A stretch of DNA of 64,000 bases from Candidatus Brocadiia bacterium (GCA_050015075.1 JBEKCB010000007.1:32001-96000); one strand, 5' to 3'; positions 17,352 through 42,829 are shown, numbered from the stretch's first letter. Notes: generated by a model from the sequence alone, not told the origin. Made by a program: numbers and translations.

Positions 17352-18929
17352 CTATTGCATGGTAATGATGCGGTCCCGAGGCACGCCGAGCGCCTTCAGC
17401 CGCTCGACGCGCTCGCCGATCCCGACAATGGCCGCCACCACGATGGTGTCGCCGCTTTGAGCCATCTCCTTCTCCGTCATCGTCGGGCGCCCGAGCAATC
17501 GCGGCGGCGCCGTGGGCCGGAACGGGCACACGGCCTTGATGTGGACGGGCAGGCGCCTGGCCATCGCGCAGAGGACGCGGGCCACATCGCCCTCTCCGTA
17601 CAGAACCAGGTCGGTGCGGCGTTCCTGAATGGCAAAGCCCAGCGCCAGGGAGCACTGTCTGAACCAGTACCGGTCGAAGGCGATAATCCTCTTAAGGAAG
17701 GAGACCAGCGCTTTGGATTTGCGAACGCCCTCATGGGCGGCGGAACTGCCCGCTCGAGGGGCGGCGAGGGCGGCCGCGCGCCACTTGACCCGCCACTGAT
17801 GCCACAGAATGCGAAGCGCCACCGGCCGCAGATACAGACGCGTCCAGCGGCCGAGCCGGTGACCGAAGGGCGGTACATGCGCGGAGGCCGGCCCCTGCGC
17901 CGGGGCGCCCGAGCCCGCGCGTTCCCGCAAAGCGATCTTGCGTTCACCCAGACGATAAGGCCGCGTCACCGCGTCGAGCCGGTCGTACCGCCAGGACGGC
18001 AGCCAGTCCGGGTCCACCAGGTCTTCCAGCGGGGCGGCGCTCGGCGGGCGGACCGCGTCCAGGCGCAGCTTGCGCAGGGCCGGGCACTCGAGGAAGGGCA
18101 GCGTTCGGTTTGAATGGAGGCACATCAGCGCCCGGGTGGACATGTGCCGTCCGTCGTGCGGCCCGGCGTAATTGCGATCGCCGGCCTGGCCGGGATGCCA
18201 CACATGGTACAGCCACTCCGCGTCCTGCCAGACTTCCCGCTTTCCGAGGTTGACGAGCCGCCACGTCATCTCGTAAGCGCCCGCAATATGGCCCAGGTAG
18301 TCCAGGTGCATGTCGGACCCGCCGATGGCGACCAGGTCGTCGCGGCGCGCGGCCATGCACGCGCCGTAGTTCCGCGTGTGCAGAGGGTCGGCCTTGTCGA
18401 GCAATCCCAGCGGCTTGCCGTTGACCCAGTTGATGCACCCGAAGCCGGTGATGTCCTCGAACCGCGCTCGGTCGAAGGGATAGAAGCTCGGGTGGTTGTT
18501 GCGGACTTCGTCCAGATGCAGCACGATGTTCGGGTCCGCCTGGAAGGCGTTGCGGATGGACTCGATGAACGTGGGGCGCGCCAGGGCGTCGGAGTCCGCG
18601 AAGCACACGACGCGGCCGCGCGCCAGCAGGATGCCCGCGTTGTACATGGCGTGCTTGTGGTAGCACAGACCCGGGTCCATGCCCAGCACGGCCCAGACGT
18701 CCACAGGCGGCGCCTGGCCGGAAGCGGCCGCGCGGTCCATCCGCTCGCGCAGGGCCGGCCACTCGCGCTGATAGTACTCGATCCAGATGATCTCGTAACG
18801 CTCGCGGTCAACGGTCTGCTCGGCGAGGCAGTCGAGCAGGTGCGCGCTCTCCCGGCAGGACCAGTCCAGCAGGACCAGGCTGACATCCACGCCGGCGGGG
18901 CGCTCTCTATTGACGATGAACCGGGTCAC
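17352..18929 (-). CDS. Glycosyltransferase family 2 with C-terminal Rossmann-like domain
   Basis: YEIIWIE, YNAGILLARG..FADSD and HVWHP motifs; GTG start overlapping the upstream stop. Confidence 0.8.
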   Translation of the reverse strand: MTRFIVNRERPAGVDVSLVLLDWSCRESAHLLDCLAEQTVDRERYEIIWIEYYQREWPALRERMDRAAASGQAPPVDVWAVLGMDPGLCYHKHAMYNAGILLARGRVVCFADSDALARPTFIESIRNAFQADPNIVLHLDEVRNNHPSFYPFDRARFEDITGFGCINWVNGKPLGLLDKADPLHTRNYGACMAARRDDLVAIGGSDMHLDYLGHIAGAYEMTWRLVNLGKREVWQDAEWLYHVWHPGQAGDRNYAGPHDGRHMSTRALMCLHSNRTLPFLECPALRKLRLDAVRPPSAAPLEDLVDPDWLPSWRYDRLDAVTRPYRLGERKIALRERAGSGAPAQGPASAHVPPFGHRLGRWTRLYLRPVALRILWHQWRVKWRAAALAAPRAGSSAAHEGVRKSKALVSFLKRIIAFDRYWFRQCSLALGFAIQERRTDLVLYGEGDVARVLCAMARRLPVHIKAVCPFRPTAPPRLLGRPTMTEKEMAQSGDTIVVAAIVGIGERVERLKALGVPRDRIITMQ

Positions 18930-19654
18930 GGCCTGCCCTTCGCTCTTCGGGCCAGGTTCTCGGCGGCGATCTGGCGCCCTTCTTCCCAGGCGATGAAGAC
19001 CAGTTCGTCGGCGAACTCCCGGGGCTTGACGTACGTCGCATCCAGCGGCGCCTTGCCCGCCTCGAAATGCATGTGCTCGAGCACAATGTCCTTCAAGTAG
19101 GCGAGGCGGTCGCAACCGAGGGCCTTGAGCTTCCGGAAGATGTCGTACAGATGGGTGTCAATGTAGTCGCGGTTGTACTCGACAGGCACCAGCCCGCCCG
19201 CCAGCGCCCACGCTTCGCGGTGGAAGGCCGGCAGGCAAGGCAGCGCCGCTCCTCGAAACAGGTCGTTGCACCACACGAGCGCAATCCGATCGGGGAACCG
19301 GTTGAGCGCCTCGACCACCGCCGTATCCCAGCCGGCAGTGCGGCACACGACGTCATCGTTCATCAGCATGAGGTAGTCGCCCCGCGCGGCCGCGTAACAC
19401 GCGCCGGTCATGGCGCCCATCTTGGCGGACCGCCCAATGCACCGGCGGACCGACAGCCTCGGATGGCCCACGTTGTGGCTGGCGCGATCGTCGGCATCCA
19501 GGAAGAGCACCACCTCGATGCGGTCCGGCCGGTCCGCCGTGGCTACGATGCTCTCGAACAGCCTCGCGACGCAGTCCGGACGGCCCCGAACGGGAAGCAG
19601 AAGGCTGAGGACGCTGTTCTGTGCGATTTCCGCCATGTCGGAGCCGCATTCCAA
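18926..19654 (-). CDS. Glycosyltransferase family 2
   Basis: SLLLPVRGRP, LDADD, LMNDD and LEHMH motifs; paralogous to the N-terminal domain of 26879..30427. Confidence 0.85.
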   Translation of the reverse strand: MECGSDMAEIAQNSVLSLLLPVRGRPDCVARLFESIVATADRPDRIEVVLFLDADDRASHNVGHPRLSVRRCIGRSAKMGAMTGACYAAARGDYLMLMNDDVVCRTAGWDTAVVEALNRFPDRIALVWCNDLFRGAALPCLPAFHREAWALAGGLVPVEYNRDYIDTHLYDIFRKLKALGCDRLAYLKDIVLEHMHFEAGKAPLDATYVKPREFADELVFIAWEEGRQIAAENLARRAKGRP

Positions 19655-21127: not shown

Positions 21128-22176
21128 CGCGCCGCCCGCCCCGCTTTCCGCCCGACCAGCGCCCGGGCCGCCGAGACGACGTCCCTGGGACCCGGGTAAT
21201 AAGTGGACTCACTGCATGCGGGCACGGGCGTATCGGGCAAGCCGATCCGCGCAGGCGCCGCCTTGAATGCGCCCGGCCCGACGCCCGAAAGGGTCTGCGC
21301 GATGACCTCGCCGCCCACCCCGAACAGCGTGTGACCCGTGTCCACCACCAGCAGGCGCCCGGTCTTGCGCACCGACTCGCACACCGGCGCCGGATCGAGC
21401 GGGCGCAGCCAGCGGAGATCAATGACTTCGGCCTCGATGCCATGTTCCTCGGCCAGTGTGCCCGCGGCCAGCAGGGCATCGGCCAGCGCGTAACTCAGGG
21501 CTACGATGGTCAAATCCGATCCTTCCCGGACCGTCTGCGGCGGCCCCGGCGGACGGAAGTAGACGCCCTCTTCCACGTGCCCGGAAAGGTTCCAAAGCCA
21601 CTTGTGTTCCATCAACATCACCGGCCCGGCGGCTTCCAGGGCCGCGTAAAGCAGCATACCCTTGGCGTCCGCGGGAGTAAAGGGAACGGCGACGCGCAGT
21701 CCCGGGAAATGCGCCAGGACCGCGTGGAGGGCCTGGCTGTGCTGGGCGGCCGAACCCCAGCCCCGGCAGGCGACCGAGCGGATCGCCATGGGAGTTGCGG
21801 TTTGATGGCCGAACATCAGGTCCCACTTGGCGGCGTGGTTGGCAATCTGGTCCAGGCCGACCAGCAGAAAGTCGTTGCGGGGATGGACGACGATGGGGCG
21901 CAGCCCGCCCAGGCTCATGCCGATGCCCATGCCGGTGATGATTTCCTCGGCCGTGGGGACATCGAAGACGCGTTCCTCGCCGAAGACCTCCTGAAGTCCT
22001 TTCGTCGTCCCGTAAGTCCCGCCCAGGTCCGCGACGCCCTCGCCGAAGAGCCGCACGCGCGCATCGGTCTCCAGCGCCAGCCGCGTGGCCTCGGCCAGGG
22101 CCTGCTGGTACGTCAGCGGCCGCTTTCCTTGAGCGAGAAGCTCGGGCAGCTTGGGCGTCGTTCCCCAGTTGCTCAT
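21124..22176 (-). CDS. TPP-dependent enzyme, E1-beta / transketolase C-terminal subunit
   Basis: FGEGV, DVPTAE, AAQHSQ, EHKWL and EVIDLRWLRPLD motifs. Confidence 0.9.
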   Translation of the reverse strand: MSNWGTTPKLPELLAQGKRPLTYQQALAEATRLALETDARVRLFGEGVADLGGTYGTTKGLQEVFGEERVFDVPTAEEIITGMGIGMSLGGLRPIVVHPRNDFLLVGLDQIANHAAKWDLMFGHQTATPMAIRSVACRGWGSAAQHSQALHAVLAHFPGLRVAVPFTPADAKGMLLYAALEAAGPVMLMEHKWLWNLSGHVEEGVYFRPPGPPQTVREGSDLTIVALSYALADALLAAGTLAEEHGIEAEVIDLRWLRPLDPAPVCESVRKTGRLLVVDTGHTLFGVGGEVIAQTLSGVGPGAFKAAPARIGLPDTPVPACSESTYYPGPRDVVSAARALVGRKAGRAAR

Positions 22177-22194
22177 CGGTCTGCTGACCCATCT

Positions 22195-23118
22195 CTAAAC
22201 GTGGCGGTACTCCAGGACGGTCTCTTCACTCTTCAGCGCCTCGGCGTAGGCCCGGTCAACCTGGCCGCTGACCTCCGCGTCAATCGCATCAGCCTCCGCG
22301 CGGGCCAGCGTGCAGCGGGCCACCTTCATGGGGCAGTACTTCTCAAAGAGTTCCATCTCGACCGCGTCGCGGAAGCCGGCGGCGATGTCGTCGCGGATGC
22401 CGTTGTGGTCATATCGGCGGACCGTGCTGCACTCGACGAACAGCGGTCCGCCGGCCTCGCGCACGCGCCGGATCGGCTCGGCCAGCGCCCGGTGAAGCGC
22501 GAAGACGTCGTTGGCCACCTCGATGGAGAAGTCATGCGTTTCCATGCCGAAGGCCCGCGCCACCGCCGCCGGATGCGCCGCCCGCCGGACGCGCTGCGGC
22601 GTGTAGACGCTGTAGCGGTTGTTTTCGCAGAGGAAGATCACCGGCGCGCCGCGGAGCTGGGCGTAGTTGAGGCTCTCCGCGAACACGCCCTCGTCGGCCG
22701 CCGCGTCGCCGAACAACACGGCCGCCACCGTCGGCCGCCGCACGGCCAGCCCCAATCCGACGGCGATGGGCAAGGCGCCGCCGACGATGCTCGTCGTGCC
22801 CACCAGGCTGTTCTTGCGGTCCACAAGGTGCATCGAGCCGCCGTATCCGCCGCTGCACCCGCATCGGCGACCCAGCAACTCGCCGAAGAAAGCCACCAGG
22901 TCGCCGCCGTTGGCCAGATAAAGCGCGTGCGATCGGTGCGTGCCGATTTTCAGATCGTCCGGGGCCAGGTGCGCGCACAGCGCCACCGCGACGGATTCCT
23001 GCCCGACGCTCAAGTGCACCGGACACTGCATCACGTTGGACGCGTACACGTCCAGGATCTTCTGCTCAGCGTGACGGACCAGCGACAGGGTCCGGTAAAG
23101 TTGGCTGTTTTCTTCCAT
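22195..23118 (-). CDS. TPP-dependent enzyme, E1-alpha subunit
   Basis: HLSVGQE, THRSH, GGSMH and FGDAAADEG..ENN TPP motif. Confidence 0.9.
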   Translation of the reverse strand: MEENSQLYRTLSLVRHAEQKILDVYASNVMQCPVHLSVGQESVAVALCAHLAPDDLKIGTHRSHALYLANGGDLVAFFGELLGRRCGCSGGYGGSMHLVDRKNSLVGTTSIVGGALPIAVGLGLAVRRPTVAAVLFGDAAADEGVFAESLNYAQLRGAPVIFLCENNRYSVYTPQRVRRAAHPAAVARAFGMETHDFSIEVANDVFALHRALAEPIRRVREAGGPLFVECSTVRRYDHNGIRDDIAAGFRDAVEMELFEKYCPMKVARCTLARAEADAIDAEVSGQVDRAYAEALKSEETVLEYRHV

Positions 23119-24286: not shown

Positions 24287-26866
24287 TCAACCGCGGCCGA
24301 GGGTGTCGTCTATCATGGCGCGCGCCTGCGCTTCGGTCAAAGCCAGGAGAATGCCGGGCGTTTCTCTGTCCGCCTTGCGAGCCAGATTCAGCGGTCCCAA
24401 CGTAAGAGGCGCCGCAAGGACGCACCGTCCGTAGGCGACCAGATTGTAGCCCTTGTACGATCCGATCAGGGTGGGCGGAGGGCTTCCCTCGTAGCGCGGC
24501 AGGGCTTTCACCGCTTTCACGGCGACTTCGCCGGCAACCGATGGGATGCCGAGAAACGCGTCGCCCACGCGGCAGACCAGGTAAGGCTCGCCGTCCCCGG
24601 CCAGGCTCAGGAATCCGTCAATGGCCTGGATCAACTGATCGCGGGTCTCACCGATGATTATCCATGGCTGCGCGCGGTCCGCCGCACGGGTGAAGTCAAT
24701 GCGTCCGAGCGCGGCGGGCGCGCCGTAAAAAAGGCCGCGATAAAGGACCACGTTGTAGCCCCGGTAGGCCTGGAACAATTGAGGTTGGTCGGAGGCGTGC
24801 GCGACCGCCTCGTTGACTGCGGCGGACGCGGGCTTGCTCTGTTCCTTGCACGCCGGCGCGTTGTGCGTGGAGGCCAGGTCGGCATCCTTTCGTTCGACCT
24901 CCTGCGCGGTGAACTCGGTCCACGCCGTTGTGGGAATGCCGTTCTCATGGAGCGCGCGGACGATCCGCTTGAGCCTCTGATAGCGGACTTGCGCGTCAAT
25001 ATAAGGGGATTCGCTGTGCCACTCGCCGTCGGGGATGGCCACGGGGTAACGAGAATAGAGTTGTTCCCGGGGCGTGCGGAATTTAATGCCGAACTCCTCG
25101 GGCCGGTTCCAGTAGTCGGAGCCTCGGAAAAGCATCAGCGGGTTGACGAAGGGCACGCGCCCGATCCAGGGTTTCAGCGCCTTGAAGAACTCGATCGCCT
25201 CATCCACGTCCGCCTCGGTCTCGCCCGGAATCCCCACAATCGCGTTCACCTCGGTGGTGATGCCGGCCTCCGCGGCAAACCGCAGATTGTCGTGAACGAC
25301 CTCCTTGCTGTACCCTTTCCGCTGAAGTTTCATCGTATTGGCGGACCAGCCATCCACGCCGAACCGCAGGCAGACGAAGCCGGCCTTCGCGAGCTTGAGG
25401 TAATATTCCTTTCCGGCGCGCTTGTTGCAGCGGAGTTGCGCGGTCATGTGAATCGCCAGGCCCCGCCGGATGATTTCATCGCACAGCCTCTCGATCAGCG
25501 ACGTGTCGCCGTGCAGGTCGCTCTCATTGAAGACGAACTCGACGGCGCCCATCTTGCAGAAGTACTCGATATCGTCCACCACTTTCTCCGGCGTGCGGGC
25601 GCGCCAGTGGAAACGCTCCGCGCAAAAGCGGCAACGCGACCACGGACATCCTCGGCTTCCCACAATCGGCACCAGCCAGTAGCCGTTCCAGTTTCGATAA
25701 CGCCGCGGGTCGGTCCATTCGTAACGCGGATGACCCAGCGGATCGAGTTCGGCCGGAATGGGGCCCGGCTGGAATTCACGGTCGGGCGTATCGCCGCGCG
25801 ACCAGACGCCCGGCAGGTCGTGCGGCTTTTCGCCCCTGAGGATGGCTTTGACCAGCGGCCCGACCGTGAGGTCCGCCTCGCCCACGACGGTATAATCCGC
25901 CGGCGGGAAGATGAACTTGGCGACGCCCGGCTGCAGGCAGCTCATGCCTCCTGCAATCACCACCAGGCCGGGGAGGCGGCTGCGCACTTCCTGCACGATG
26001 TGCCGGGCGAACGTGAGGTTCGCCTGCTGCAGCGAACAGGCAAGGATCTTCGGTTGCGCCCGCACCAGTTTGGCGACGATCTCATCCATGTCCGGCTGGA
26101 AGTAGCCGACAAAATCGTCTTTTTCCCACTCGAGGTAGTGAACGGACTGCCAGGGGTCCTCCGGCATGCGCCGGCCCGCAGGCGTTCTCATCACGGGGAT
26201 CGCGTCCAGAATCCGGTCCGAGTGGAAGCGATGATAGATGATATTGTCCAGGTCCACTGTCTGGAGGCGGATCCCCTCGCGTGCGAGCGCCATCTGCACA
26301 TAACCGAATCCCACGGGCAATTGGGCGATGCTCCGGGCAGGGAAGTCCAGCAGAATCACATCCTGTCCCGGGAGGAACTCGATCTCCGGGATTTCAATGG
26401 GATAGATGCTCTTGACGGCGGGGACCCAGGCGCGCGAGGGGATCGCTCTCCAATCGAGATTTTTCAGGTCGTCCAGGGTCACTTGCCTGACGCGCGCGGG
26501 CAAGGCCTTGCGCATGCGGTCCAGGACGCGCCCGCGGACCTCGCACAGGAAAACGGTGCTCACGGCGGCGGGCAGAGACTCCGGGCGCATGGCGGCCATC
26601 CCGGCAAAGTCTCCGGCGGCGCGCACCGGGTCCTCATCCACGATCACCGAAACGCGTTCTCTCAAAATGGGCGATTGTTCGAGAAGATACCGGGCAAGGC
26701 GCCCGGCGCCGAAGAAGGCCACTCCGCCCTCCATGCCGGCGAGATGGTTGGCCAGAACCGACACGCAGCGACGGTCCTCCTCGCCGCCGTCAAACCGAAA
26801 ACAGCGCGCGCGCGAGAAAACCATTTCCTTGAGATCGGCCTCAAGGGTTATGGCGGCATTCGCCAT
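24287..26866 (-). CDS. Multidomain cobalamin-binding radical SAM enzyme with two C-terminal copies of an unknown module
   Basis: AGG..VVGEAD B12 domain; SRGCPWSRCRFC; N-terminal FFGAG Rossmann-like segment. Confidence 0.88.
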   Translation of the reverse strand: MANAAITLEADLKEMVFSRARCFRFDGGEEDRRCVSVLANHLAGMEGGVAFFGAGRLARYLLEQSPILRERVSVIVDEDPVRAAGDFAGMAAMRPESLPAAVSTVFLCEVRGRVLDRMRKALPARVRQVTLDDLKNLDWRAIPSRAWVPAVKSIYPIEIPEIEFLPGQDVILLDFPARSIAQLPVGFGYVQMALAREGIRLQTVDLDNIIYHRFHSDRILDAIPVMRTPAGRRMPEDPWQSVHYLEWEKDDFVGYFQPDMDEIVAKLVRAQPKILACSLQQANLTFARHIVQEVRSRLPGLVVIAGGMSCLQPGVAKFIFPPADYTVVGEADLTVGPLVKAILRGEKPHDLPGVWSRGDTPDREFQPGPIPAELDPLGHPRYEWTDPRRYRNWNGYWLVPIVGSRGCPWSRCRFCAERFHWRARTPEKVVDDIEYFCKMGAVEFVFNESDLHGDTSLIERLCDEIIRRGLAIHMTAQLRCNKRAGKEYYLKLAKAGFVCLRFGVDGWSANTMKLQRKGYSKEVVHDNLRFAAEAGITTEVNAIVGIPGETEADVDEAIEFFKALKPWIGRVPFVNPLMLFRGSDYWNRPEEFGIKFRTPREQLYSRYPVAIPDGEWHSESPYIDAQVRYQRLKRIVRALHENGIPTTAWTEFTAQEVERKDADLASTHNAPACKEQSKPASAAVNEAVAHASDQPQLFQAYRGYNVVLYRGLFYGAPAALGRIDFTRAADRAQPWIIIGETRDQLIQAIDGFLSLAGDGEPYLVCRVGDAFLGIPSVAGEVAVKAVKALPRYEGSPPPTLIGSYKGYNLVAYGRCVLAAPLTLGPLNLARKADRETPGILLALTEAQARAMIDDTLGRG

Positions 26867-26878
26867 CTCTTTTTCCCT

Positions 26879-29800
26879 CTACTTCACCCGCACCGCAAGC
26901 TCAAAGCCATGGGCGATGAGATCGTCGGGCGGAATCGAACTCAATTCCTTCCGGATATCTTCGGTCAGGAGGTCCTTCCCTTCGTACGAGCGCACGAAAT
27001 GCAGCACCTCGACGTCCGGGGCCTCCATGAATTCACGAATCCCGTATTCCTCGAAGCGCTTCCGGTTCACGTGGGCCGGGTTGAGCATGGATTCGAGGTA
27101 CTCCTTCGGCTCTCTTCCCATCTTGCGCCGCATGACCGCGTCCAGGCCGCGCTTTCTGCAATGAGCCAGGATGGCCTCCGGAGTGAGGCGAAGATGAATC
27201 CACGGGAAGTCGTCGAAATAGCCGAACATATGATGCCCGAACGGCGAGAAATAAAGAGGGCCGGCCTGCAAATAAATGCAGCCGCCGGAGCAGGTGACGC
27301 GTTTCATTTCCTGCAGCGCGCGTGCGGGGTCTGTGATATGTTCGAGCGTGGCAATGGAGAAGCACGCGTCAAAGCTGCCGTCGGGGAAGTCCATTTCCGT
27401 CGCCCCCATTCGGCGATACGTGATGCGGGGATTGGGATACGCGCAGCCGACCGTGGCCAGCAGGTCAATGCCGGTCATGGATGCGGGCTCTTCGGCCAGG
27501 AGAAGATCGCACACGAGCCCGTCGCTGCAGCCGACTTCCAGCACGTGCTTGCCCTTCAGCGGCGGAACGAAGCGGAACATGCTGTTGAGATAGGCCTTGT
27601 TGTACACGATGCGATGCACGTCCTCGCCCCGGTACGTGCGAGCCGGACGATCGGCGGATGCGATAATCAGCCAGTCGGCCAATTGCGCCGCGAGCGCCTC
27701 CGCATGGTTGTCGGCCCACTTCGGCCGGCCATCGCACGGAAGGATGACGACATCGCAGCGTTCCTTGCGAAGGGCCTCCAGGAGTTCGGGCGACAAGCGG
27801 GCCGGATCGAAGAGGTCCGTCTCGCGGCCCTGGGCATCCTTCAGGACATGCATGGGGCCTTCGGCGTACTCCCGAGCCCAATGCGCGGGCGCCAGGCAGG
27901 CGACCTCGTAATCCGGGAATTGGCGCACCAGCCGTTTCGCCGTGGCGGGGGCGACGGTCCCCAGGAACAGCGCTTTGACTTTTCCGCCGGCCTTCGAACG
28001 GCGCTGAATTTCCTGCTGCACCTCCTCGATGGTGTTCCCGATCAGGCATTGACTGTAATTCCCCTTTTGCGCGCGCGCCAGCTCGAACGCTCCCTCGCTC
28101 TGCGGCGTGGCGAAATATTTTGTCGCGCAGAAGGTGATGGTGAAACCTTGATAATCGGGCAGCACCGTGCGGGCGGTTGCCGAAGCCGAATCATCGCCGA
28201 CCGGCGGCAGCGCGCGCGGATTTTCAACCCGAGCGCCGCCGCTCCGCCGCGGCGGGCGCGGGGTCAGCGCGGATATCAGTTTCTTCGTCAAGGCCCGCGG
28301 CCCGAAGCCGGGAGGATTCCTTCTGCCGCTGAGCTTGACGCCCAGAGAACGGCCGAGTTCGAAGAGAATCGCCGCGGCCTGCGAGAAACTGACCTTCTGC
28401 CGAACCAGCTCGTTGCGCACGAAGGGAGAGCCGTCGGCGGAAGATGTGACTTGATCTATCCGGCTTCGCGCGTCTGCTTCGGAGGCGCACGCCAGGACTC
28501 CTTCACGAGACCGCGCGGACTCCTCCCTCAAGTCCATTTCTCCGAATGCCAGCGGCACGGCCAGGACCGTTCTGCCGAATTCAACGACATTGTACGACTT
28601 GTATGAGGAGAGCAGAATGGGCGCATAGCCGCCGCGAACGATCGGCGTACGCTGCAGGCGCTCCAGGACTTTTTCGGCGATCCGCATGCGGCCCTCATCG
28701 CCGCTCGCCGCGTACTGCGTCCGGGCTTTTGCCAGTTCGGTCACGAGCAGGCTGCGAAACAGCGGGAATGGTTCCGAGGCTCGGACCACCTCTTCCAGTT
28801 GTGCGGCAAAGCGGTCCGGCTCCGTCGGCCCCTCGCCGCCGAGGAGTCCATAGATCCGCCTGGGGATTGCGACGAACGGGGCCAGCCGCTCGTCGGGCAG
28901 CCACACACTCTCTTCCAGCTTGGAGAGCCGGCCCGTGTCCAGCCACTCGGCGACAAAGACGTCCAGGTCCTTGTTCCAGAGCCGTTGGGAAGCGGCGGAA
29001 CCGTGCGGCAGGGTGGCGCCGGCGAGATGCGTGACGCAAACCTCAGGCGTGCACACCAGCTTGTAGCGCGTTTCCCAGATTTTCAGGCTGTAGTCAATGT
29101 CGAGGAAGTACTTGCTGAAGGCCTCATTGAAGCGAATGTCGCCCACTCTGCGCATGTGGACCAGGAGGCAGGCGCTGCATGCGCAGGGCGTTTCGCGGGG
29201 ACGCTCCGGCACATCCAGGAGATGCGAGTGCGACCCGAACCGGTCGCCCATCATATACGCGCCGGTGAAGGATATATTGCCCGCGGCGTCTTTGTGCATG
29301 GGCGCGACGACGCCCACGTCCGGCTCCAGGGCGCGCAGCAGACCGTCCAGCCAGCCGTTTTCGACATACACGTCGTCATCCATGAGAACCAGGTAGTCGC
29401 TCCGGACCGCTCGAAGGACTTTGTTCATTTCCCGCGGATGATTGAAATCCCGGCTCCGATTGTTGTCGAGCAGAATGAGTTCCGCCTCGCTCGCGTGCTC
29501 CTTGAGCAGCGAAAGGCAGCGGGCGGAGTGCGTCTGCCGGAAATCGGCGCTGACGACCGCGATGGTCACCGAGGGCTTCCGCGACGATGTGTCGGACGAT
29601 CCGGTGGGCCACCAGTTGACGTACTCCGGCCGACGGAACATATAAGGATCCGTGATATGGCCCAGCCGGCGGGTATAGCCGCTTCGTTTTCGCGCGGCGG
29701 ATGATTCGTCAATCAGCGCGGCGAGGCGAAGCGCATTGGTCCGCCGCTCGTCGAGCTTCTCCATGAAGCGCCGGGAGTCCGCCTCGTGGATTTCCTGGCT

Positions 29801-30427
29801 GGGCACATAAACTTTGGCTTCCTCGGATTGGAAAACCGACTTGGCCTTCCCGTCCGCAGCCTTGTCAAAATTGTCATGCTCGAAAACCACGTCGGGCAGG
29901 TAGAAGATGCGTTTGTGGCCCAGGTGCGCGAGCATGCAATACGTGTCGTAGATGTGATCGTCAATCCGATACCGATGGTAGTCGGCCGGGCACAGGCCGA
30001 TCTCACGGCAGGCCCTGCGCGAGAGGCAGGGGAACGTGCACAACTTCTCACGGAAGAGCAGGTCGTTGAGATGGACGAGGGCGATGTCGTCCCGGACGGA
30101 TCGAAACACGTCGCCCACCGCCCGGTCCCAGTTCTTCGTTCGGACGATGATGTCATCGTTGACGAGCATCACGTGGCGGCCCGACGACGCCTCGAAACAG
30201 GCGCGGTTGAGCCGGCCCATGGAAAGCCCCGGCGGAACGACGACTTTTTTCAGACTGAGAGCGCTGAACTGGATGGACTGAGAGGCTTTGTCGTCCTCGT
30301 CCAGGCAGAGGACGACCTCCAGCGATCCCGGAACGAGGACCGTCTCGGCCACGCTCTCCAGGAAGCGCCGCACCAGCTCCGGCCGTCCCCTCGTCGGGAG
30401 GAGCAGCGAGTATTCGAACACGTTCAA
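26879..30427 (-). CDS. Multidomain enzyme: GT2 + GT2 + two unknown modules + class I methyltransferase
   Basis: LLLPTRGR..VNDD; second GT2 LLDNN..LMDDD..YFLDIDYS; C-terminal VLEVGCSDG..FDACFSIATLEH. Confidence 0.88.
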   Translation of the reverse strand: MNVFEYSLLLPTRGRPELVRRFLESVAETVLVPGSLEVVLCLDEDDKASQSIQFSALSLKKVVVPPGLSMGRLNRACFEASSGRHVMLVNDDIIVRTKNWDRAVGDVFRSVRDDIALVHLNDLLFREKLCTFPCLSRRACREIGLCPADYHRYRIDDHIYDTYCMLAHLGHKRIFYLPDVVFEHDNFDKAADGKAKSVFQSEEAKVYVPSQEIHEADSRRFMEKLDERRTNALRLAALIDESSAARKRSGYTRRLGHITDPYMFRRPEYVNWWPTGSSDTSSRKPSVTIAVVSADFRQTHSARCLSLLKEHASEAELILLDNNRSRDFNHPREMNKVLRAVRSDYLVLMDDDVYVENGWLDGLLRALEPDVGVVAPMHKDAAGNISFTGAYMMGDRFGSHSHLLDVPERPRETPCACSACLLVHMRRVGDIRFNEAFSKYFLDIDYSLKIWETRYKLVCTPEVCVTHLAGATLPHGSAASQRLWNKDLDVFVAEWLDTGRLSKLEESVWLPDERLAPFVAIPRRIYGLLGGEGPTEPDRFAAQLEEVVRASEPFPLFRSLLVTELAKARTQYAASGDEGRMRIAEKVLERLQRTPIVRGGYAPILLSSYKSYNVVEFGRTVLAVPLAFGEMDLREESARSREGVLACASEADARSRIDQVTSSADGSPFVRNELVRQKVSFSQAAAILFELGRSLGVKLSGRRNPPGFGPRALTKKLISALTPRPPRRSGGARVENPRALPPVGDDSASATARTVLPDYQGFTITFCATKYFATPQSEGAFELARAQKGNYSQCLIGNTIEEVQQEIQRRSKAGGKVKALFLGTVAPATAKRLVRQFPDYEVACLAPAHWAREYAEGPMHVLKDAQGRETDLFDPARLSPELLEALRKERCDVVILPCDGRPKWADNHAEALAAQLADWLIIASADRPARTYRGEDVHRIVYNKAYLNSMFRFVPPLKGKHVLEVGCSDGLVCDLLLAEEPASMTGIDLLATVGCAYPNPRITYRRMGATEMDFPDGSFDACFSIATLEHITDPARALQEMKRVTCSGGCIYLQAGPLYFSPFGHHMFGYFDDFPWIHLRLTPEAILAHCRKRGLDAVMRRKMGREPKEYLESMLNPAHVNRKRFEEYGIREFMEAPDVEVLHFVRSYEGKDLLTEDIRKELSSIPPDDLIAHGFELAVRVK

Positions 30428-30474
30428 CGGCCATCCTCCGGTTCAGCCCGACGCATCAGACAGCAGCGGCGCGC

Positions 30475-32316
30475 TTACGCTTTTGCCGTCTTTCTCAAAC
30501 CGAGAAACCAGGCGCGCCAGCCCGGCTTGGGTTTGGCATCCTCCGTCCGCCGCATGGCTTCGAGAGCGGCATGCGCTTGCGAGACAGCCTGGTCCTTGTC
30601 TGCGATCTCAGCGTCCTTCTCGGCAATCACTTTCCAGAGCGTGGCGAGCTCGGCGTCCTTATGCTCCATTTCCTGTCGGAGCGTGGCTAGATCGGCCTCG
30701 CTCGCCCGCCGCAGAGCTTCAAGAGCTGCGCGCAATTGGCAGGCGTCCTGGTCCTTGCCGGCAATCGCCGCCTCTTTTTCAGCGACCACTTTACGAAGCG
30801 CGGCGATTTCTTCATCCTGGCGTTCCGTCCCTTTTCGGAGCGCGGCCAGATCGGCCTCGGCCGCGCGGCGCAGGGCTTCGAGAGTCGCGCGCAATTGGCA
30901 GGCGTCCTGGTCCTTGCCGGCAATCGCCGCCTCTTTTTCAGCGACCACTTTACGAAGCGCGGCGATTTCTCCATCCCTGCGTTCCGTCTCTTTACGGAGC
31001 GCGGTCAGATCGGCCTCAGCCGCGCGACGCAGGGCTTCGAGAGCCGCGCGCAGTTGCGAGACGGCCTGGTCCTTGCCGGCCATTGCGGCGTCTTTTTCAG
31101 CGACCGCCTTACGGAGCGCGGCGATTTCTCCATCCTTGCGCACCGTCCCTTCGCGGAGCGCGGCCAGATCGGCCTCGCGCACCGCGGCGGCGGCTTGCAG
31201 CGCCCCGATTTGCGCCGCCTTTTCATCGAATTCAACGCGGAGGCGCCTGGAGCGCGCTCGATCAACGAGTTGTTGCGCCTGGGGCACGTCCTCCGCTACG
31301 ACGAGCATGTGCTGCGCCTGGAGTTCATTCAAACGCGGCGCGTCGAGGCTTCGCAGGTCCAGCGGCCCCAACTCCACCGAAGCCGCATAGACTCTGCCGG
31401 CGTACCGCACGAGGTTATACCCTTCGTGATTTCCGATGAGGGCGGGAGAATCGTCCGCGATCGGCGGCTCGTTGAGCCTGGGCAGCAGACTTTCCATGCT
31501 CTCCGAACGGAGGACTTCGGGTCGCTCGCGAAGGGCTTGTCGGGTTATATCGAGACCTTGGAGAAGGGCATGCGGAACCGCGTATATGTTTTTCTCGTAT
31601 CGGAAAAGAGCGTAAGTGCGCGTGTAGCAGAGCGGCGGAGGCGGCTGCTGGAGGCTGTCTTCAATGCCCGGAAAAGCGATGTCGGTCGGCTCCCAGCCCT
31701 GGCTCTGCGGCAGGCGGCGCACGCTCCAGATCGAATGATTGATCGAGTACTTCTCGAAGGTCTCGCCGACGGCCAGCACGACGCCGCAATGGACGGTTTG
31801 GAAATAATCGGTCTCTTTGCCCTGGTCGAGGAACCCGCGCTCGAAGTCGCGGATGCGGCCTTCGCAGTCGTGCCCGCAAAGAATTCCGCCGCTCCGCACC
31901 AGGTTGGAGTAGGCCTGAATGTCCCGCAGGACGCCGCCGTAGCGGTGGTCCCCGTCAATGAACACCAGGTCAAAGGCGCCCTCTTTGAGTATCGCGGCGG
32001 CAAGGTCCGATCTGCCCCTGATGGGCACGACGGTATTCTCAAGCCCTTGCTCGCAAATCCCGGCCCAGAACCTGGAGAATATATCCTCTCTCTGCGCCGC
32101 CGCGAAAAGCTCCGTGCCGGGACTGCCCTTCCACCAGTCCACGCAGAAGAGGTGCCCATCGTGACATTGCGCGACCTTGCCGAGAATAGCGGCGGATTCG
32201 CCGAGCCAACTGCCCACTTCGAGGAACCGGGCGCCCGGACGGGCCGCCGCCTCGGCCAGGGTGCGCAGGACGATCTCCTGTTCGCGGCTCGGGATCTGCT
32301 TCGCGGGCGCGGTCAT
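30475..32316 (-). CDS. SAM methyltransferase (Methyltransf_24-like) with two unknown modules and a long coiled coil; WbdD-like architecture
   Basis: LEVGSWLGES, FDLVFIDGDH and GGILCGHD motifs; four 53-aa helical repeats; C-terminal amphipathic WRAWFLGLRK. Confidence 0.85.
   Translation of the reverse strand: MTAPAKQIPSREQEIVLRTLAEAAARPGARFLEVGSWLGESAAILGKVAQCHDGHLFCVDWWKGSPGTELFAAAQREDIFSRFWAGICEQGLENTVVPIRGRSDLAAAILKEGAFDLVFIDGDHRYGGVLRDIQAYSNLVRSGGILCGHDCEGRIRDFERGFLDQGKETDYFQTVHCGVVLAVGETFEKYSINHSIWSVRRLPQSQGWEPTDIAFPGIEDSLQQPPPPLCYTRTYALFRYEKNIYAVPHALLQGLDITRQALRERPEVLRSESMESLLPRLNEPPIADDSPALIGNHEGYNLVRYAGRVYAASVELGPLDLRSLDAPRLNELQAQHMLVVAEDVPQAQQLVDRARSRRLRVEFDEKAAQIGALQAAAAVREADLAALREGTVRKDGEIAALRKAVAEKDAAMAGKDQAVSQLRAALEALRRAAEADLTALRKETERRDGEIAALRKVVAEKEAAIAGKDQDACQLRATLEALRRAAEADLAALRKGTERQDEEIAALRKVVAEKEAAIAGKDQDACQLRAALEALRRASEADLATLRQEMEHKDAELATLWKVIAEKDAEIADKDQAVSQAHAALEAMRRTEDAKPKPGWRAWFLGLRKTAKA
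30545..31179. repeat. Four tandem 159-bp (53-aa) coiled-coil repeats
   Basis: AGATCGGCCTC recurs with its GATC ending at 30693, 30852, 31011 and 31170, an exact 159-bp period. Confidence 0.95.
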
Positions 32317-33902
32317 CTGTGGCTGTTTCCTTCGACTCCGGACACGAGCGTAAAGGAACTCTCCAGCGCCGCGATCCCATCGAACCGCCGCGTCTGGCGC
32401 ACGGCCAGATGGATGACGCTGGTGCGAATGTCAATCGGCACGTCCTCCGCCGGCTCTTTCTGGGCCAGCCCCAGGTCCATAAAGTAGTCGCCGTAATGAA
32501 CGTTGAGCTGAATCGTGAACTTCCCCAGAAGGATCTCTCCGCCGGACACCGGGGCCAATTCCACTCCCATGAACCGCGTGTTGCTCCCGTTGACCATGAG
32601 GCCGTCGAGGGCTCTCAGGGCGTATCCGAACATCGGGTTGGCGATCGGCTGGTGCACGCGGGCCTTCACATAGATGTCCACGACCTCGCCGCTGTCCATG
32701 GCCGCCGGGGCGCAGGAGGCGGCATCCGCGACGAGGAAGTCCACGATTTCGCCGCGACGATCGCCGAAACGGTATTCATTCCTATTGTAGCCGCTGCGCG
32801 CCGGACAATGATCTCCCGGCGGCGTGTCCCGCAGGAATTCCTCGATCTGCCTGGCCCGGAGCGCTTTTGCCTTGTCGTTCACCGCCTCTCCGGTCGTCGT
32901 CTCGGCGGCCGATGCGCCGCGCGGCTGGGCGCTGTCGGGGCGCGAGGCGTCCACCGCCTCGCGGACCGCCTTTTCCGAATTGCCGACGAAGATCCGCTTT
33001 TCCTCCACGCGCTGCTCGATGACCGTCTCCGGCAGACTCGAGAAATCCATCGGCCCGAGTCCCTGGTCCACCGCGAACAACCGGCGGCCGAATTTCACGA
33101 TGTTGAACCCCTTGTAACCTTCGAAGACCAGTTCCGGATACGGCGTGTACCCCTCGATGACGCCGGTGAACAGCAGCTCATTGTAACAGTTCGCCACGTG
33201 CTTCGGCTCGCCCTGTTCGAGCACCCGGCCATGGTCCAGGAGAATGGCGCGGTTGCAATGTTCCACAATCGCGTTCGTATCGTGACTGACGAAGAGGATG
33301 GTTTTTCCGCCCGACTGGAACTCGAGGAACTTCCGGTAGCACTTGTGCTGGAACTTGGCGTCGCCGACCGCGAGCGCCTCGTCCACCACCAGGATATCGG
33401 GGTCCACGTAGATCGCGGCGGCGAACGCCAGGCGGGCATACATCCCCGAGGAATAGGTCTTCAGCGGCTGGTCGAAGAACTCGTCAATCTCAGCGAACTG
33501 CTGGATCACCGGAAGCCGGCTCCGCATCTCCGACGCCGAATACCCGAATGTCCTGCCCTGCATCAGAACGTTCTCCCGGCCGGTGAACTCCGGGCTGAAG
33601 CCGGCGCCCAGCTCCAGCAGCGCCGACACCCGCCCGCGGACTTCCACCGTGCCGGCCGTGGGCCGCAACACGGAACTGACGATCTGCAGCAGGGTGCTCT
33701 TCCCCGATCCGTTTCGGCCCATGATGCCCAAGGTCAGCCCCTTCGGCACATCGAAGCTGACCTCCTGCAAGGCCCAGAACTCCTTGTGATGCTTCTTCCG
33801 GAAAGGGTCGAGCGCCTCCAGCAACCGTTCCTTGGGCGAGCCGTAGAGCCGGTATTTCTTGGAGAGCCCCTTTGCCGAGATGGCCAGGGAATCATCCGCC
33901 AT
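32313..33902 (-). CDS. wzt: Polysaccharide ABC transporter ATP-binding protein with Wzt C-terminal domain
   Basis: GRNGSGKST, YSSGMYARLAF and DEALAVGD motifs; C-terminal RFGD..GEVVDI..GSNT..GDYF domain. Confidence 0.93.
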   Translation of the reverse strand: MADDSLAISAKGLSKKYRLYGSPKERLLEALDPFRKKHHKEFWALQEVSFDVPKGLTLGIMGRNGSGKSTLLQIVSSVLRPTAGTVEVRGRVSALLELGAGFSPEFTGRENVLMQGRTFGYSASEMRSRLPVIQQFAEIDEFFDQPLKTYSSGMYARLAFAAAIYVDPDILVVDEALAVGDAKFQHKCYRKFLEFQSGGKTILFVSHDTNAIVEHCNRAILLDHGRVLEQGEPKHVANCYNELLFTGVIEGYTPYPELVFEGYKGFNIVKFGRRLFAVDQGLGPMDFSSLPETVIEQRVEEKRIFVGNSEKAVREAVDASRPDSAQPRGASAAETTTGEAVNDKAKALRARQIEEFLRDTPPGDHCPARSGYNRNEYRFGDRRGEIVDFLVADAASCAPAAMDSGEVVDIYVKARVHQPIANPMFGYALRALDGLMVNGSNTRFMGVELAPVSGGEILLGKFTIQLNVHYGDYFMDLGLAQKEPAEDVPIDIRTSVIHLAVRQTRRFDGIAALESSFTLVSGVEGNSHR

Positions 33903-33903: not shown

Positions 33904-34743
33904 CTAGAGCACCTCCGGGAAGTCCGGCTTCAGCCGCCGGAACAGCAGCCCGCCGGCGGAGAAGAGTCCCAGGCTGACGATCCAGAAATAAATTCCCGCC
34001 TTCCAGTTCTGCCAGAGCGGCGCGTACAGGTCCGGGATAAAGCTCGCCCGGTAGCCGTGGATGACGTAGTACATGGGATTCAACTTAGGCAGAAAACGCA
34101 GAGACTGCGGCAACCGAAGCATCATGTCCTCGGTCCACACCACCGGCGTCAGCCAGAACCACATATTCAGCACCACGGCGAGAATCTGACCGACGTCGCG
34201 GTAAAAGACGTTCAGCGCCGCGACGATCCATCCCAGGCCCACGCTGAACACGGCCATCCCGAGCAGGAAATAGACGAATTGAACGTTGTAGAACGAAAAC
34301 CGCAGACCGCTGGCCATGATCACGATGGCCAGGATCACCAGCATGATCACATGGCTGACCATGCTGGCCAGCCAGTGTGCGAGGGGCAGAATCTCCGTCG
34401 GAAAAACCGTCTTCTTGACCAGGTACGGATTGCCGGTGACCGCATTGCTGCTCGCCGATACGGTCTCGGCAAAGGCCGTCCAGGGAATCAGACCGCACAG
34501 GAAGTAGACGATGAACGGCGTGTTGCCGGCCGGGTGAACCCGGAAGCCGAGCGAAAAGATCACCCAGTAGATGAGGATCATCATCAGCGGGTGCGCGACC
34601 GACCAGGCCATCCCGGCGAGCGTCCCCACGTATCGCTTGCGAATTTCCATTCGGGCCATGGCCCAAATAGTCCTTCGGTTGCCCACAACCCGGATCACGA
34701 ACCTTGCGAGGGACGCCAAGAGGGACTCTCCGTGTCTGCGCAA
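33904..34743 (-). CDS. wzm: Polysaccharide ABC transporter permease
   Basis: RKRYVGTLAGMAWS, GLIPW, YLVKKTVFP, RDVGQ, FWLTP and NPMYY motifs. Confidence 0.93.
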   Translation of the reverse strand: MRRHGESLLASLARFVIRVVGNRRTIWAMARMEIRKRYVGTLAGMAWSVAHPLMMILIYWVIFSLGFRVHPAGNTPFIVYFLCGLIPWTAFAETVSASSNAVTGNPYLVKKTVFPTEILPLAHWLASMVSHVIMLVILAIVIMASGLRFSFYNVQFVYFLLGMAVFSVGLGWIVAALNVFYRDVGQILAVVLNMWFWLTPVVWTEDMMLRLPQSLRFLPKLNPMYYVIHGYRASFIPDLYAPLWQNWKAGIYFWIVSLGLFSAGGLLFRRLKPDFPEVL

Positions 34744-35320: not shown

Positions 35321-36370
35321 CTACTCGAACCGGAAGTTTTCGCTCCTGATAAGCTCGCAGCAGGCATTTGCCGCATTCGCGTCAAAAAGCGTGCCGCAGC
35401 CCTTGGTCACTTGTTCAATCACAAGCTCAATCGTCATAGCCGGACGATAGGGACGAGGAGAGGACATTGCCTCGACCACGTCGGCCACGGCCAGAACCTG
35501 CGCTTCGAGGATGATCTGGCTCCCCTTGAGTCCATGAGGGTAGCCGGAGCCGTTGAGCCGTTCATGGTGCTGCAGCGTCGCGTCTGCAACAGGCCAGAAG
35601 AAGTCAATCTTTCGCAAAATGTCATAACCGACCTGCGGGTGCGTCTTGATGATGCCGAACTCGCATTCGCTGAGCTTCCCCGGCTTGGAAAGAATTTCGG
35701 CGGGCACGGCGATCTTCCCTATATCGTGCAGGAACCCGGTAATCTCGATGCCTCGCTCCTGCGTCTCGCTGATGCCCAACCGTCGAGCGATTGCCGCAGC
35801 CAGGCGTGCGACGCGCCGTTCGTGCCCCGCCGTGAAGGGGTCGCGGATTTCAATTGCCGACGATATGGCTTCGACACTTCCGTCCATCACGCGCTCAAGA
35901 CGACTCTCGCGCTCCTGCAGCGCCGAGGTTCGGTCAATGATCAGGTCCTCCATCCTTTCCCGGTAGCGCAGGTTTTCAGCTTCGAGTCTCGCCTTTTCGT
36001 CATTCAACGTCCTGATTTTGCAGGCGTTGCCTACAGAGCGCAGGACGGCCTCTTTGGTACAGGGTTTGAACAGGTAGTCCACGGCCCCATCCCGGAGCGA
36101 TGCCGCCGCCGTCTCGGCCGTCGGTTCACCGGTCATCATGACCACCAGCGTGCGCGGCGTGGCCACCTTGATCTTTGCGAGGAGTGCGACACCATTCAGG
36201 CCGGGGAGAATGATATCCGAAAGAATGACATCGAATTCCTTTGCGCGGAACAGCGTTTCCGCCGCATCGGCGTTCTCGGCCGTATCCACTTCGTACCCGG
36301 CGGCGCCGAGGAACGTGCTGAACGTCCTGCGTATCGCCTTCTCGTCGTCTACAACAAGCACTTTTGCCAT
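35321..36370 (-). CDS. Response regulator with HD-GYP c-di-GMP phosphodiesterase domain
   Basis: REC (VVDDE, SDIILP, KP); RDPFTAGH, HDIGK, HHERLNGSGYP and VADV motifs. Confidence 0.93.
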   Translation of the reverse strand: MAKVLVVDDEKAIRRTFSTFLGAAGYEVDTAENADAAETLFRAKEFDVILSDIILPGLNGVALLAKIKVATPRTLVVMMTGEPTAETAAASLRDGAVDYLFKPCTKEAVLRSVGNACKIRTLNDEKARLEAENLRYRERMEDLIIDRTSALQERESRLERVMDGSVEAISSAIEIRDPFTAGHERRVARLAAAIARRLGISETQERGIEITGFLHDIGKIAVPAEILSKPGKLSECEFGIIKTHPQVGYDILRKIDFFWPVADATLQHHERLNGSGYPHGLKGSQIILEAQVLAVADVVEAMSSPRPYRPAMTIELVIEQVTKGCGTLFDANAANACCELIRSENFRFE

Positions 36371-36443
36371 GACATGGTCTCCATTGCCTTTTCGTCACTT
36401 GCCGGGTGGCTCAACGCTCATCCGGGTCGCCTCGGGGCATCCA

Positions 36444-37706: not shown

Positions 37707-37847
37707 GACACGTCTCCTTAGCCTTGTTGCAGCATGTCCAGCCCAAAAGGGCCGGCCATCGTCGAGCGACGGGTTTCCCCGCCGACGACTGCCCTCGCTC
37801 CGTCCGTAGCCACCATGTTGCACTTCCCGAATGTAAGCGTCTATCAA

Positions 37848-39284: not shown

Positions 39285-39485
39285 GCTATCGCCTCCTAAA
39301 AGGGTGCCCACCGCCGCCTTGTTGCAGCGCCTCCAGCCTGTAAGTTCCAGCCATTGTCGAGCGGTGAGCCCACGCACATCCGCGTTTAGCGCCCGTCCTC
39401 CGTCTCGAGGTGACCGCGCCGCCATGGTCCTTAATAATCCCGTGGCTGATCGCAAGCCCGGGCCCGTGCCGCGGTCGCGCGGCTT

Positions 39486-41357: not shown

Positions 41358-41462
41358 GGTAAACGACCTTTCTGAAAATGTCGCCGGGTCCGCCGCAGGC
41401 GGAATGCCGAATGTCTTGTGATGAATTCATTCGGCCATGGGCCATCCGTCAATGGCCGCCCA

Positions 41463-42365: not shown

Positions 42366-42409
42366 CTGCTTCTCCTTTTCCGGCCCGTCGTTGCTTTTCA
42401 AGTGCCGCA

Positions 42410-42829
42410 TCATCCGTCGCGCGCACCGGCGCTCACCGCCCGCACCCCGCTTAACCCGCCGCCGAGAAAGAAAGCGCACAAGAGCGACGCGTTATCACTC
42501 TCGACGGTCCAGATTTCCTCGATAATCTCGATCATGTGATCCAGCAGCGTATCCAATTTCGAGCGGTCCGGGCATTTCGGCGGCTTCTTGAAAAGCACAA
42601 CGGCCCTCGCGGCGCGCATTCCCAATTCGATCTCTTCGACCATCTGGAGGAGGTCCTCCTTCTCGTCCCGGAGGTCGTGGAATTGATCCAGGTCCCATCC
42701 TTCGTGGAGCGTGTCGTGCTGTTTCCATGTGAGCCTGCGGACGTGCGTGTAGAGTTGCGCCTCTTCTTTGTAACCGTGCACCAGGGCGTTGATAGCCGCC
42801 GCGACGTCGGTCAGCGTGTCGTTCTTCAC
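42410..42829 (-). CDS. Helical hypothetical protein, possibly FlgN-like
   Basis: GAGGAGGG RBS, GTG start, four-helix pattern, directly upstream of fliA. Confidence 0.5.
   Translation of the reverse strand: MKNDTLTDVAAAINALVHGYKEEAQLYTHVRRLTWKQHDTLHEGWDLDQFHDLRDEKEDLLQMVEEIELGMRAARAVVLFKKPPKCPDRSKLDTLLDHMIEIIEEIWTVESDNASLLCAFFLGGGLSGVRAVSAGARDG

Follow-up and report, generated by a model that had tools for sequence, protein, structure and literature searches.

In Klebsiella and Escherichia coli models of ATP-binding cassette (ABC)-dependent glycan synthesis, PMC11231755 documents scaffolding of the pathway by the chain terminator. For E. coli O9a and K. pneumoniae O3, PMC11231755 and PMC3482155 describe the WbdD-WbdA enzymes as complexed on a membrane-anchored coiled-coil terminator. 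The K. pneumoniae O7 terminator ORF6 has a putative immunoglobulin (Ig)-like carbohydrate-binding module (CBM) between its methyltransferase and coiled coil, and the same paper states that other terminators had no identified CBM (PMC11231755). On the export side, Wzt_C is given a role in recognition of the capped chain end in PMC9445017. How the enzymes of ABC-dependent glycan pathways find the growing substrate, or each other, is known for few enterobacterial models. Here we analyze a module of about 57 residues that occurs seven times in four consecutive genes of a glycan operon from a Candidatus Brocadiia bacterium. The operon lies in a 64,000-nucleotide stretch (GCA_050015075.1 JBEKCB010000007.1:32001-96000), called the window below, and all window coordinates count from its first nucleotide.

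Judged from sequence profiles and a predicted fold, the module is a real, undescribed family of small autonomous non-catalytic domains. Within glycan loci it is found in several genes at a time, and its two subtypes differ in host preference. Its sequence makes it recognizable, and in a single pathway it tags the exporter, the likely terminator, a polymerase-type glycosyltransferase and tailoring enzymes. The reading that we rank first, ahead of homotypic docking but with a confidence somewhat short of even, is that it is a substrate-tethering module, whose ligand would be the growing glycan or something else shared by pathways of this kind.

Seven diverged copies in four consecutive genes

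The original prediction had placed seven copies of the module in four consecutive genes, and all seven were found at those positions, on the minus strand, each 57-64 residues long. Residue ranges were taken from a family profile, and window coordinates were derived from the residues and the gene ends. E values below refer to the family profile, to leave-one-protein-out profiles, or to an outside profile built from 388 copies in other proteins, each less than 50% identical to any window copy.

32946..33137, minus strand: Wzt_1, residues 256-319 of the exporter ATPase Wzt; long; family profile 1e-16, outside profile 7.9e-16
31468..31641, minus strand: MT_1, residues 226-283 of the methyltransferase; short, the most divergent copy; family profile 1.4e-8, outside profile 6.9e-7
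31258..31446, minus strand: MT_2, residues 291-353 of the methyltransferase; long; leave-one-out 4.4e-7, family profile 9.5e-14, outside profile 2.1e-12
28451..28621, minus strand: GT2_1, residues 603-659 of the GT2 protein; short; leave-one-out 1.3e-10, family profile 8.2e-16
28001..28171, minus strand: GT2_2, residues 753-809 of the GT2 protein; short; family profile 3.7e-15, outside profile 1.3e-13
24614..24784, minus strand: rSAM_1, residues 695-751 of the radical S-adenosylmethionine (SAM) protein; short; leave-one-out 5.1e-10, family profile 1.3e-17, outside profile 1.5e-16
24305..24475, minus strand: rSAM_2, residues 798-854 of the radical SAM protein; short; leave-one-out 4e-15, family profile 3.8e-17

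Wzt_1 has 64 residues with a 6-residue insertion, as in MT_2, and lies between ABC_tran (residues 45-177) and Wzt_C (residues 375-512), which bears out its predicted place between the nucleotide-binding and C-terminal domains. In an AlphaFold tandem model, MT_2 has an extra helix at model residues 104-112, and MT_1 folds like the other copies. GT2_2 is a divergent variant that reads 'EGAFE' where others read 'LGxxD'. rSAM_2, at the C-terminal end of its protein, was the copy chosen for modelling.

A profile of the seven copies was searched against 59,773 six-frame open reading frames (ORFs) of the 4.64-Mb genome, and only the four window ORFs matched; the next best had an E value of 0.97. Because this search of the profile's own genome is circular, we ran a leave-one-protein-out test. 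It recovered five of the seven copies (Wzt, 2e-7; MT_2, 4e-7; GT2_1, 1e-10; the two radical SAM copies, 5e-10 and 4e-15) and missed the two most divergent, MT_1 (0.33) and GT2_2 (9.3). Among the same ORFs, the outside profile recovered all seven, at 6.9e-7 to 1.5e-16, with no further ORF at E <= 1.

The window copies are 20-43% identical to the reference rSAM_2, and a same-genus genome, G001, holds the same four genes with seven copies; both findings agree with the earlier view that the copies are diverged and not recent duplicates. Between the window and G001, the ratio of nonsynonymous to synonymous substitution rates (dN/dS) is 0.08-0.32 for the module and 0.09-0.23 for the catalytic domains. 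The module values fall in the range of the catalytic domains; the copies are old and under purifying selection.

A hairpin-like segment between both modules of the radical SAM protein ('VCRVGDAFLGIPSVAGEV', residues 764-785, window 24512-24577, minus strand) was considered as a possible eighth copy. It scored 4.9 bits alone, with an independent E value of 7.9e3 genome-wide, and was rejected; it is at most a decayed remnant.

Family identity and predicted fold

The seven copies alone, searched at E <= 10, gave only two single-copy chance matches in Pfam-A 2025 (0.054 and 0.081) and one in NCBIfam 20.0 (0.15). In the four whole proteins, no Pfam or NCBIfam family covered the module region, and precomputed Pfam annotation of three Wzt relatives comprised PF14524 and PF00005 only. 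A CD1375-like match on the repeat-only member P0023, named 'hypothetical protein' by NCBI, exceeded its cut-off (30.7 bits against 27) and was rejected because no single stretch was significant and no other relative gave it. Other Pfam matches on repeat-only relatives, which differ from protein to protein, were likewise set aside.

Structural searches gave a similar picture. The module profile had no match among PDB sequences at E <= 10, and Foldseek with the module model returned nothing at E <= 0.001. In VIA-align over 48,161 chains, the top Z scores were 4.7 for the single module and 4.0 for the tandem model, which is background level; the methane monooxygenase subunit MMOD (6d7k_H, Z 4.7 and 4.0) and the other listed folds were rejected as such. 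The ESM Atlas gave a top score of 0.87, to unnamed small proteins, and no usable match for the repeat-only protein. No description of such a module was found in titles and abstract starts of the open-access literature, a search limited by the wording used.

AlphaFold2, run for rSAM_2 on the seven-row alignment, predicted a compact unit of three strands, a short helix, a fourth strand and a C-terminal helix (beta3-alpha-beta-alpha), with a predicted local distance difference test (pLDDT) value of 95 and a predicted template modelling (pTM) score of 0.80. The prediction and the empty Pfam and NCBIfam searches support the original view of an unannotated, independently folding module. Strongly conserved positions are P1, Y/F10, N11, Y/F15, Y20, G27 and D30, and about 15 positions are conserved over the 1225 clusters described below. 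What is new is an undescribed family with an unusual spread over many genes of one locus.

Distribution across proteins and genomes

A profile search of 1.84 billion representative proteins retrieved 1225 clusters at E <= 0.001, 518 at 1e-10 and 69 at 1e-30, with up to 12 matched stretches in single proteins. In the best 150 representative proteins, the module profile marked 561 copies. Partner domains in these 150 were Methyltransf_24 (22), radical SAM (12), GT2 (10), Methyltransf_11 (8), GT1/4 (6), sulfotransferase (5) and pyruvyl transferase (1). Ten of the 12 radical SAM hosts had SPASM and five had a B12-binding domain; many of the 150 were without any Pfam domain. Two further proteins extend the list, one joining the module to F5/8 type C (discoidin-like, sugar-binding) domains (metagenome locus L046, 6947-10153, plus strand) and the other to a set of adenylation, carrier-protein and thioesterase domains (L060, 1406-5392, minus strand). 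The range of hosts is thus wider than the classic enzymes of glycan synthesis.

The module is rare in species genomes, as sampled in sets of 41, 401 and 401. It was found in 2 of 41 relatives (the window genome and its congener), in 2 of 401 sampled genomes of the same phylum, the window genome included, and in none of 401 sampled genomes from the phylum of genome G424. Another genome of the window's phylum, G164 (9.4 Mb, 91% complete), holds one module copy in all. This copy forms the C-terminal end of a 353-residue ORF (L151, 9900-10958, minus strand) whose N-terminus has a hydrophobic, lipobox-like segment. Judged by eye, this N-terminus looks like a signal or lipoprotein peptide, so the module may also work outside the cytoplasm.

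Recurrence in glycan loci

Metagenome contigs were fetched by a motif pattern, which gave at least 136 stretches and 131 loci, 129 of them with the module by the family profile; overlapping loci were merged into 118 groups. In the counts below, many loci end at contig ends and related loci are not independent.

Groups of at least 8 kb: 28; at least two module genes, 21; at least three, 14; Wzt-like ATPase, 12; Wzm, 10; Wzt with module, 2
Groups of at least 15 kb: 12; at least two module genes, 9; at least three, 7; Wzt-like ATPase, 7; Wzm, 6; Wzt with module, 2

Recurrence in several enzymes of single loci had been proposed as a check, and it was seen: the module tags at least two proteins of one pathway in the window (four) and in 21 of the 28 loci of at least 8 kb, and at least three module genes occur in 14 of the 28. 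Two groups have five module genes and one has six. Different enzymes are tagged within single loci, among them radical SAM/SPASM, B12 radical SAM, Methyltransf_24 and GT4 proteins. L085 encodes a GT2-Methyltransf_11 ORF of 1220 residues with two modules and the architecture of the window's 1182-residue protein. All 10 loci with annotated neighbours are glycan loci, and a set seen in the window recurs in them: B12 radical SAM, E1 alpha/beta, DegT, GHMP kinase, epimerase, GT2 and methyltransferases. The window's second B12 radical SAM enzyme and its module-less GT2-like protein each have homologues in 15 of the 28 loci, close ones in the case of the GT2-like protein.

The module extends beyond wzm/wzt loci, with Wzm in 10 of the 28 loci, many of which are cut off. 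Tagged Wzt proteins occur elsewhere (L062, L028, L071 and three close relatives), next to a sulfotransferase in L071 and a coiled-coil protein in L062, and all four loci with a tagged Wzt (the window, L062, L028 and L071) have a same-subtype copy in a neighbouring protein. The idea that the module tethers enzymes to the exporter did not stand as a general rule, with Wzt tagged in 2 of the 12 loci that have a Wzt-like ATPase.

These counts bear on homotypic docking, as first proposed, in which modules on different proteins would bind mutually and so gather polymerizing, modifying and capping enzymes, and sometimes the exporter, with multi-copy proteins as scaffolds. We regard this as possible, though on the doubtful side. 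It is favoured by the number of module genes per locus, up to a maximum of 5-6, by the same-subtype neighbours of tagged Wzt, and by the coiled-coil terminators that PMC11231755 describes as scaffolds recruiting polymerases. It is also in keeping with similarity between copies. Among 334 unique copies, GT2_1 and rSAM_2, in separate proteins of the same locus, are mutual closest relatives (46% identity), and 27 of 189 copies have their nearest relative outside their own ORF within their own locus, against 2.6 expected. This within-locus enrichment is real, yet it is compatible alike with docking, with a shared ligand and with in-locus duplication, which can itself produce such similarity.

Several findings speak against docking. 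Wzt is without a module in 10 of the 12 loci that hold one, including L066, L052 and L018, which have long modules elsewhere. A partner copy is sometimes missing from the genome or locus: the 16-20 kb of L035 and of L068 each contain a single one-copy module gene, and G164 has its single copy, so that copies, as far as these sequences go, can stand alone. Specific docking is also hard to square with arrays of 4-11 copies on a single enzyme and with differences in copy number between homologues. The docking proposal kept its multi-gene recurrence and was weakened by arrays of 11-12 copies and by the single-gene loci and single-copy genome. Substrate tethering, close to the alternative that the original prediction had offered (a shared glycan- or ligand-binding module), fits the facts at least as well.

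Two subtypes sorted by host

The 334 unique copies fall into two main forms, 219 without inserted residues (short) and 64 with 6-7 inserted residues (long). Long copies have 63-64 residues, and the insertion is an extra helix in the AlphaFold tandem model. The window has two long copies, Wzt_1 and MT_2, and five short ones. Outside it, 10 of 11 Methyltransf_24 hosts and 5 of 6 Wzt hosts have one or more long copies, as against only one of the 22 GT2-like hosts and one of the 14 hosts of B12 radical SAM type. By sequence, then, the long subtype marks Wzt and terminator-like methyltransferases, and the short subtype marks GT2-like and radical SAM enzymes; this sorting is new.

The concentration of long copies in Wzt and Methyltransf_24 proteins is also what docking would lead one to expect, as is the frequent mixing of short (s) and long (l) copies in those proteins, 'sl' in the window and L052 and 'slll' in L066. 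In an elaboration of docking, the module would be a self-recognizing tag with two codes: the short form would gather the enzymes that build and decorate the chain, and the long form would link the capping enzyme to the ABC exporter. A coiled-coil terminator carrying both subtypes would be the hub, and multi-copy proteins would be scaffolds. We consider this version rather unlikely.

Arrays, linkers and tails

The commonest carrier of arrays is a catalytic domain of the GT2-like type that is module-less in the window. Its homologues (E 1e-79 to 1e-117) have 0, 1, 2, 4, 5, 7 or 11 modules. The gap between the envelopes of adjacent copies is 7 residues in 48 of 180 pairs. A tandem pair was modelled with AlphaFold at a pLDDT of 92.8 and a pTM of 0.57, with a dip to 71 at the linker; the low tandem pTM and this dip make adjacent copies look like beads on a string. 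That adjacent copies of one chain are not predicted to pack is a further point against docking.

Among 156 ORFs with a true C-terminus, 89 stop at most 16 residues past the last copy, the window's radical SAM protein among them; 27 have a tail of 17-60 residues and 40 extend for more than 60. In 21 of the 27 short tails the segment is basic (net +3 or more) and resembles an amphipathic membrane helix.

The regular linkers, the variable copy number and these tails would suit a flexible tether or spacer, in which the array sets the reach between a catalytic domain and a membrane anchor or second domain, as would the position of the window module between domains in Wzt, the GT2 protein and the terminator-like protein. 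The array would then be a beads-on-a-string counterpart to the coiled-coil ruler of WbdD-type terminators. We hold both this role and this parallel to be improbable. In the 89 ORFs that end soon after the last copy nothing is left to space, and because the array usually ends the protein, it is not only a spacer between two domains. A spacer would also not keep about 15 conserved positions over so many clusters, or two host-sorted subtypes.

One more possibility is that the module binds the membrane or a lipid carrier and keeps peripheral enzymes on the inner leaflet or on undecaprenyl-phosphate-linked intermediates. From pathway knowledge, the hosts would be peripheral enzymes acting on lipid-linked substrates, as this asks. 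The modules, however, are acidic (mean net charge -2.5; 72% of copies negative), and the membrane-type tail, where present, is a separate basic segment past the array. The net acidity and the separateness of the basic tails argue against direct membrane binding, and we judge this reading very unlikely.

Substrate tethering as the favoured reading

In substrate tethering, each enzyme and the exporter would be held on a shared polymer by modules that bind the nascent glycan or a common ligand. Avidity would depend on the number of copies. Short copies would serve the enzymes of chain building and decoration, and long copies the two proteins that handle the chain end, namely the terminator-like methyltransferase and Wzt. 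Here we infer both that the module binds at all and that its ligand is the glycan.

The C-terminal arrays, the conservation and the sorting of subtypes by host speak for a role in binding and against that of a simple spacer. Arrays vary in size among homologues of one enzyme, unlike what one-to-one docking predicts. Such variation is typical of repeats that bind polymers through avidity, for example LysM, SH3b and choline-binding repeats. The chemistry shared by the loci, with GT2-like and B12 radical SAM homologues in 15 of 28 each, makes a common glycan feature plausible. Position is also suggestive: the Wzt module adjoins a known carbohydrate-binding domain, and in the terminator-like protein the modules lie between methyltransferase and coiled coil, where the O7 terminator has its putative CBM. 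Taken together, the variation in array size, the 11-12-copy arrays, the lone copies, the polymer-acting hosts, the shared chemistry and the position are our reasons for ranking tethering ahead of docking. The module also resembles CBMs in being an autonomous fold, as predicted (pLDDT 95), on carbohydrate-active enzymes, here GT2, GT4, methyltransferases, sulfotransferases, radical SAM enzymes and Wzt, with putative sugar binding.

Other observations weigh against tethering. No known carbohydrate-binding fold matched in the fold searches (best Z 4.7 and 4.0), and the strongly conserved residues may be purely structural. Conservation across loci that probably make differing glycans argues against locus-specific glycan recognition. 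Hosts, shared chemistry and subtype sorting fit homotypic docking equally well, as does the presence of the module in several genes of a locus. Finally, the locus counts include related, non-independent loci, and the multi-gene share is inflated because sampling by a motif pattern favours copy-rich loci.

If glycan binding is true, the module would be a new family of cytoplasmic substrate-tethering modules and would account for the access that tailoring enzymes, among them radical SAM methylases and sulfotransferases, gain to a polymer. If instead it binds itself, it would be a portable assembly tag, useful for glycoengineering, and a two-code tag would amount to a modular docking system for a bacterial glycan assembly line, of a kind not described so far. 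Either way, a module profile would annotate many hypothetical proteins and flag a distinct class of glycan loci.

The operon and its surroundings

By Pfam annotation of the window ORFs, the module genes belong to a minus-strand operon that encodes Wzm, Wzt and proteins of 613, 1182 and 859 residues. These genes, with a module-less GT2-like gene further downstream, are as follows.

33904..34743, minus strand: wzm, ABC-2 permease of the glycan exporter (PF01061, 8.7e-22)
32313..33902, minus strand: wzt, exporter ATPase, 529 residues (ABC_tran, residues 45-177, 3.6e-21; Wzt_C, residues 375-512, 2.1e-23)
30475..32316, minus strand: terminator-like protein, 613 residues (Methyltransf_24, PF13578, residues 32-151, 3.6e-20)
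26879..30427, minus strand: GT2-GT2-methyltransferase protein, 1182 residues (Glycos_transf_2, Methyltransf_11)
24287..26866, minus strand: B12-binding radical SAM protein, 859 residues (Radical_SAM, 1.2e-17; B12-binding, 4.2e-7)
17352..19115, minus strand: GT2-like protein without a module, with a weak Pfam GT2 match only

The window thus has both parts of a Wzm/Wzt exporter, an ABC-2 permease and an ATPase with Wzt_C. Downstream of the module genes lie genes for a methyltransferase, the alpha and beta subunits of a thiamine pyrophosphate-dependent E1 enzyme and a second B12 radical SAM enzyme, followed by the GT2-like protein, an epimerase, a DegT aminotransferase, a GHMP kinase and a GT4. 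From this gene content, the region is an ABC-transporter-dependent locus for a heavily tailored glycan.

The 613-residue protein has coiled-coil-type matches at residues 355-600, preceded by its two modules, and a basic and hydrophobic C-terminal tail. Its neighbour gene encodes a Wzt with Wzt_C, a feature of WbdD-type operons. By this architecture it is terminator-like, a candidate WbdD-type chain terminator with putative capping activity, although its methyltransferase belongs to a Pfam family different from the one that we take to be that of WbdD. Inside the gene, a 159-bp tandem repeat (3.2 copies, 88% matches; window 30676-31178, minus strand) encodes 53-residue units of the coiled coil. 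In the same-genus orthologue the open frame is longer (662 residues, compared with 613), and identity outside the domains is only 66%. The repeat and the difference in length suggest that the length of a possible molecular ruler may vary among close relatives.

The E1 alpha/beta and second B12 radical SAM genes lie within the glycan operon (window 19655-23118, minus strand), and the set occurs again, with DegT and GHMP kinase, in module loci L048, L073 and L086. Its recurrence suggests a shared branched or C-methylated amino sugar. The GT2-like protein showed no module at E <= 100; its C-terminal 200 residues look like a different domain without a family assignment.

Upstream of the operon is a signalling block (window 35321-54193, minus strand) of three response-regulator/HD-GYP proteins, one GGDEF response regulator, two large PAS/GAF hybrid histidine kinases, a GAF-SpoIIE phosphatase, a PilZ-T2SSE ATPase and an MshEN-T2SSE ATPase. 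Its make-up points to control by cyclic di-GMP (c-di-GMP) of a surface structure beside the glycan locus.

Comparison with known systems

Several described systems share features with the module. Nearest to it in function are Wzt_C, the CBMs of carbohydrate-active enzymes, the putative CBM of the O7 terminator and the WbdD-WbdA scaffold; by sequence and fold it belongs to none of these. Repeats of the LysM, SH3b, GW and choline-binding types work extracellularly, on completed wall polymers. Like them, the module comes as tandem small domains with short linkers and variable copy number; unlike them, it sits mostly on hosts that need cytoplasmic cofactors (SAM, B12 or 3'-phosphoadenosine 5'-phosphosulfate (PAPS)). 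Neither Pfam nor the structural alignment over 48,161 chains linked it to these families by sequence or fold.

Cohesin-dockerin pairs and the docking domains of polyketide synthases (PKS) and nonribosomal peptide synthetases (NRPS) are small modular tags that assemble pathway enzymes, with multi-copy scaffolds in cellulosomes. They are pairs of two different partners, whereas the module is one family on all proteins, with putative binding.

Wzt_C (PF14524) is likewise a non-catalytic accessory domain on the exporter ATPase, and the window Wzt has Wzt_C and the module adjacent to each other. The two have no sequence or fold relation, and Pfam places Wzt_C at residues 375-512 only. To our knowledge, Wzt_C is found neither on many enzymes nor in arrays; the module is both.

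Further parallels are with terminators. The window encodes a terminator-like protein with what looks like the architecture of WbdD of the WbdD-WbdA complex. In WbdD the recruitment site is a membrane-near region, and the sources on this complex describe no shared repeated folded domain or tag. CBMs, including the putative one of the O7 terminator, are, like the module, small autonomous domains on glycan enzymes, and the O7 CBM and the module occupy the same place in the terminator. They differ in that the putative O7 CBM is of the Ig-like sandwich type, whereas the module has a predicted beta3-alpha-beta-alpha fold and is spread over up to 5-6 genes of a locus.

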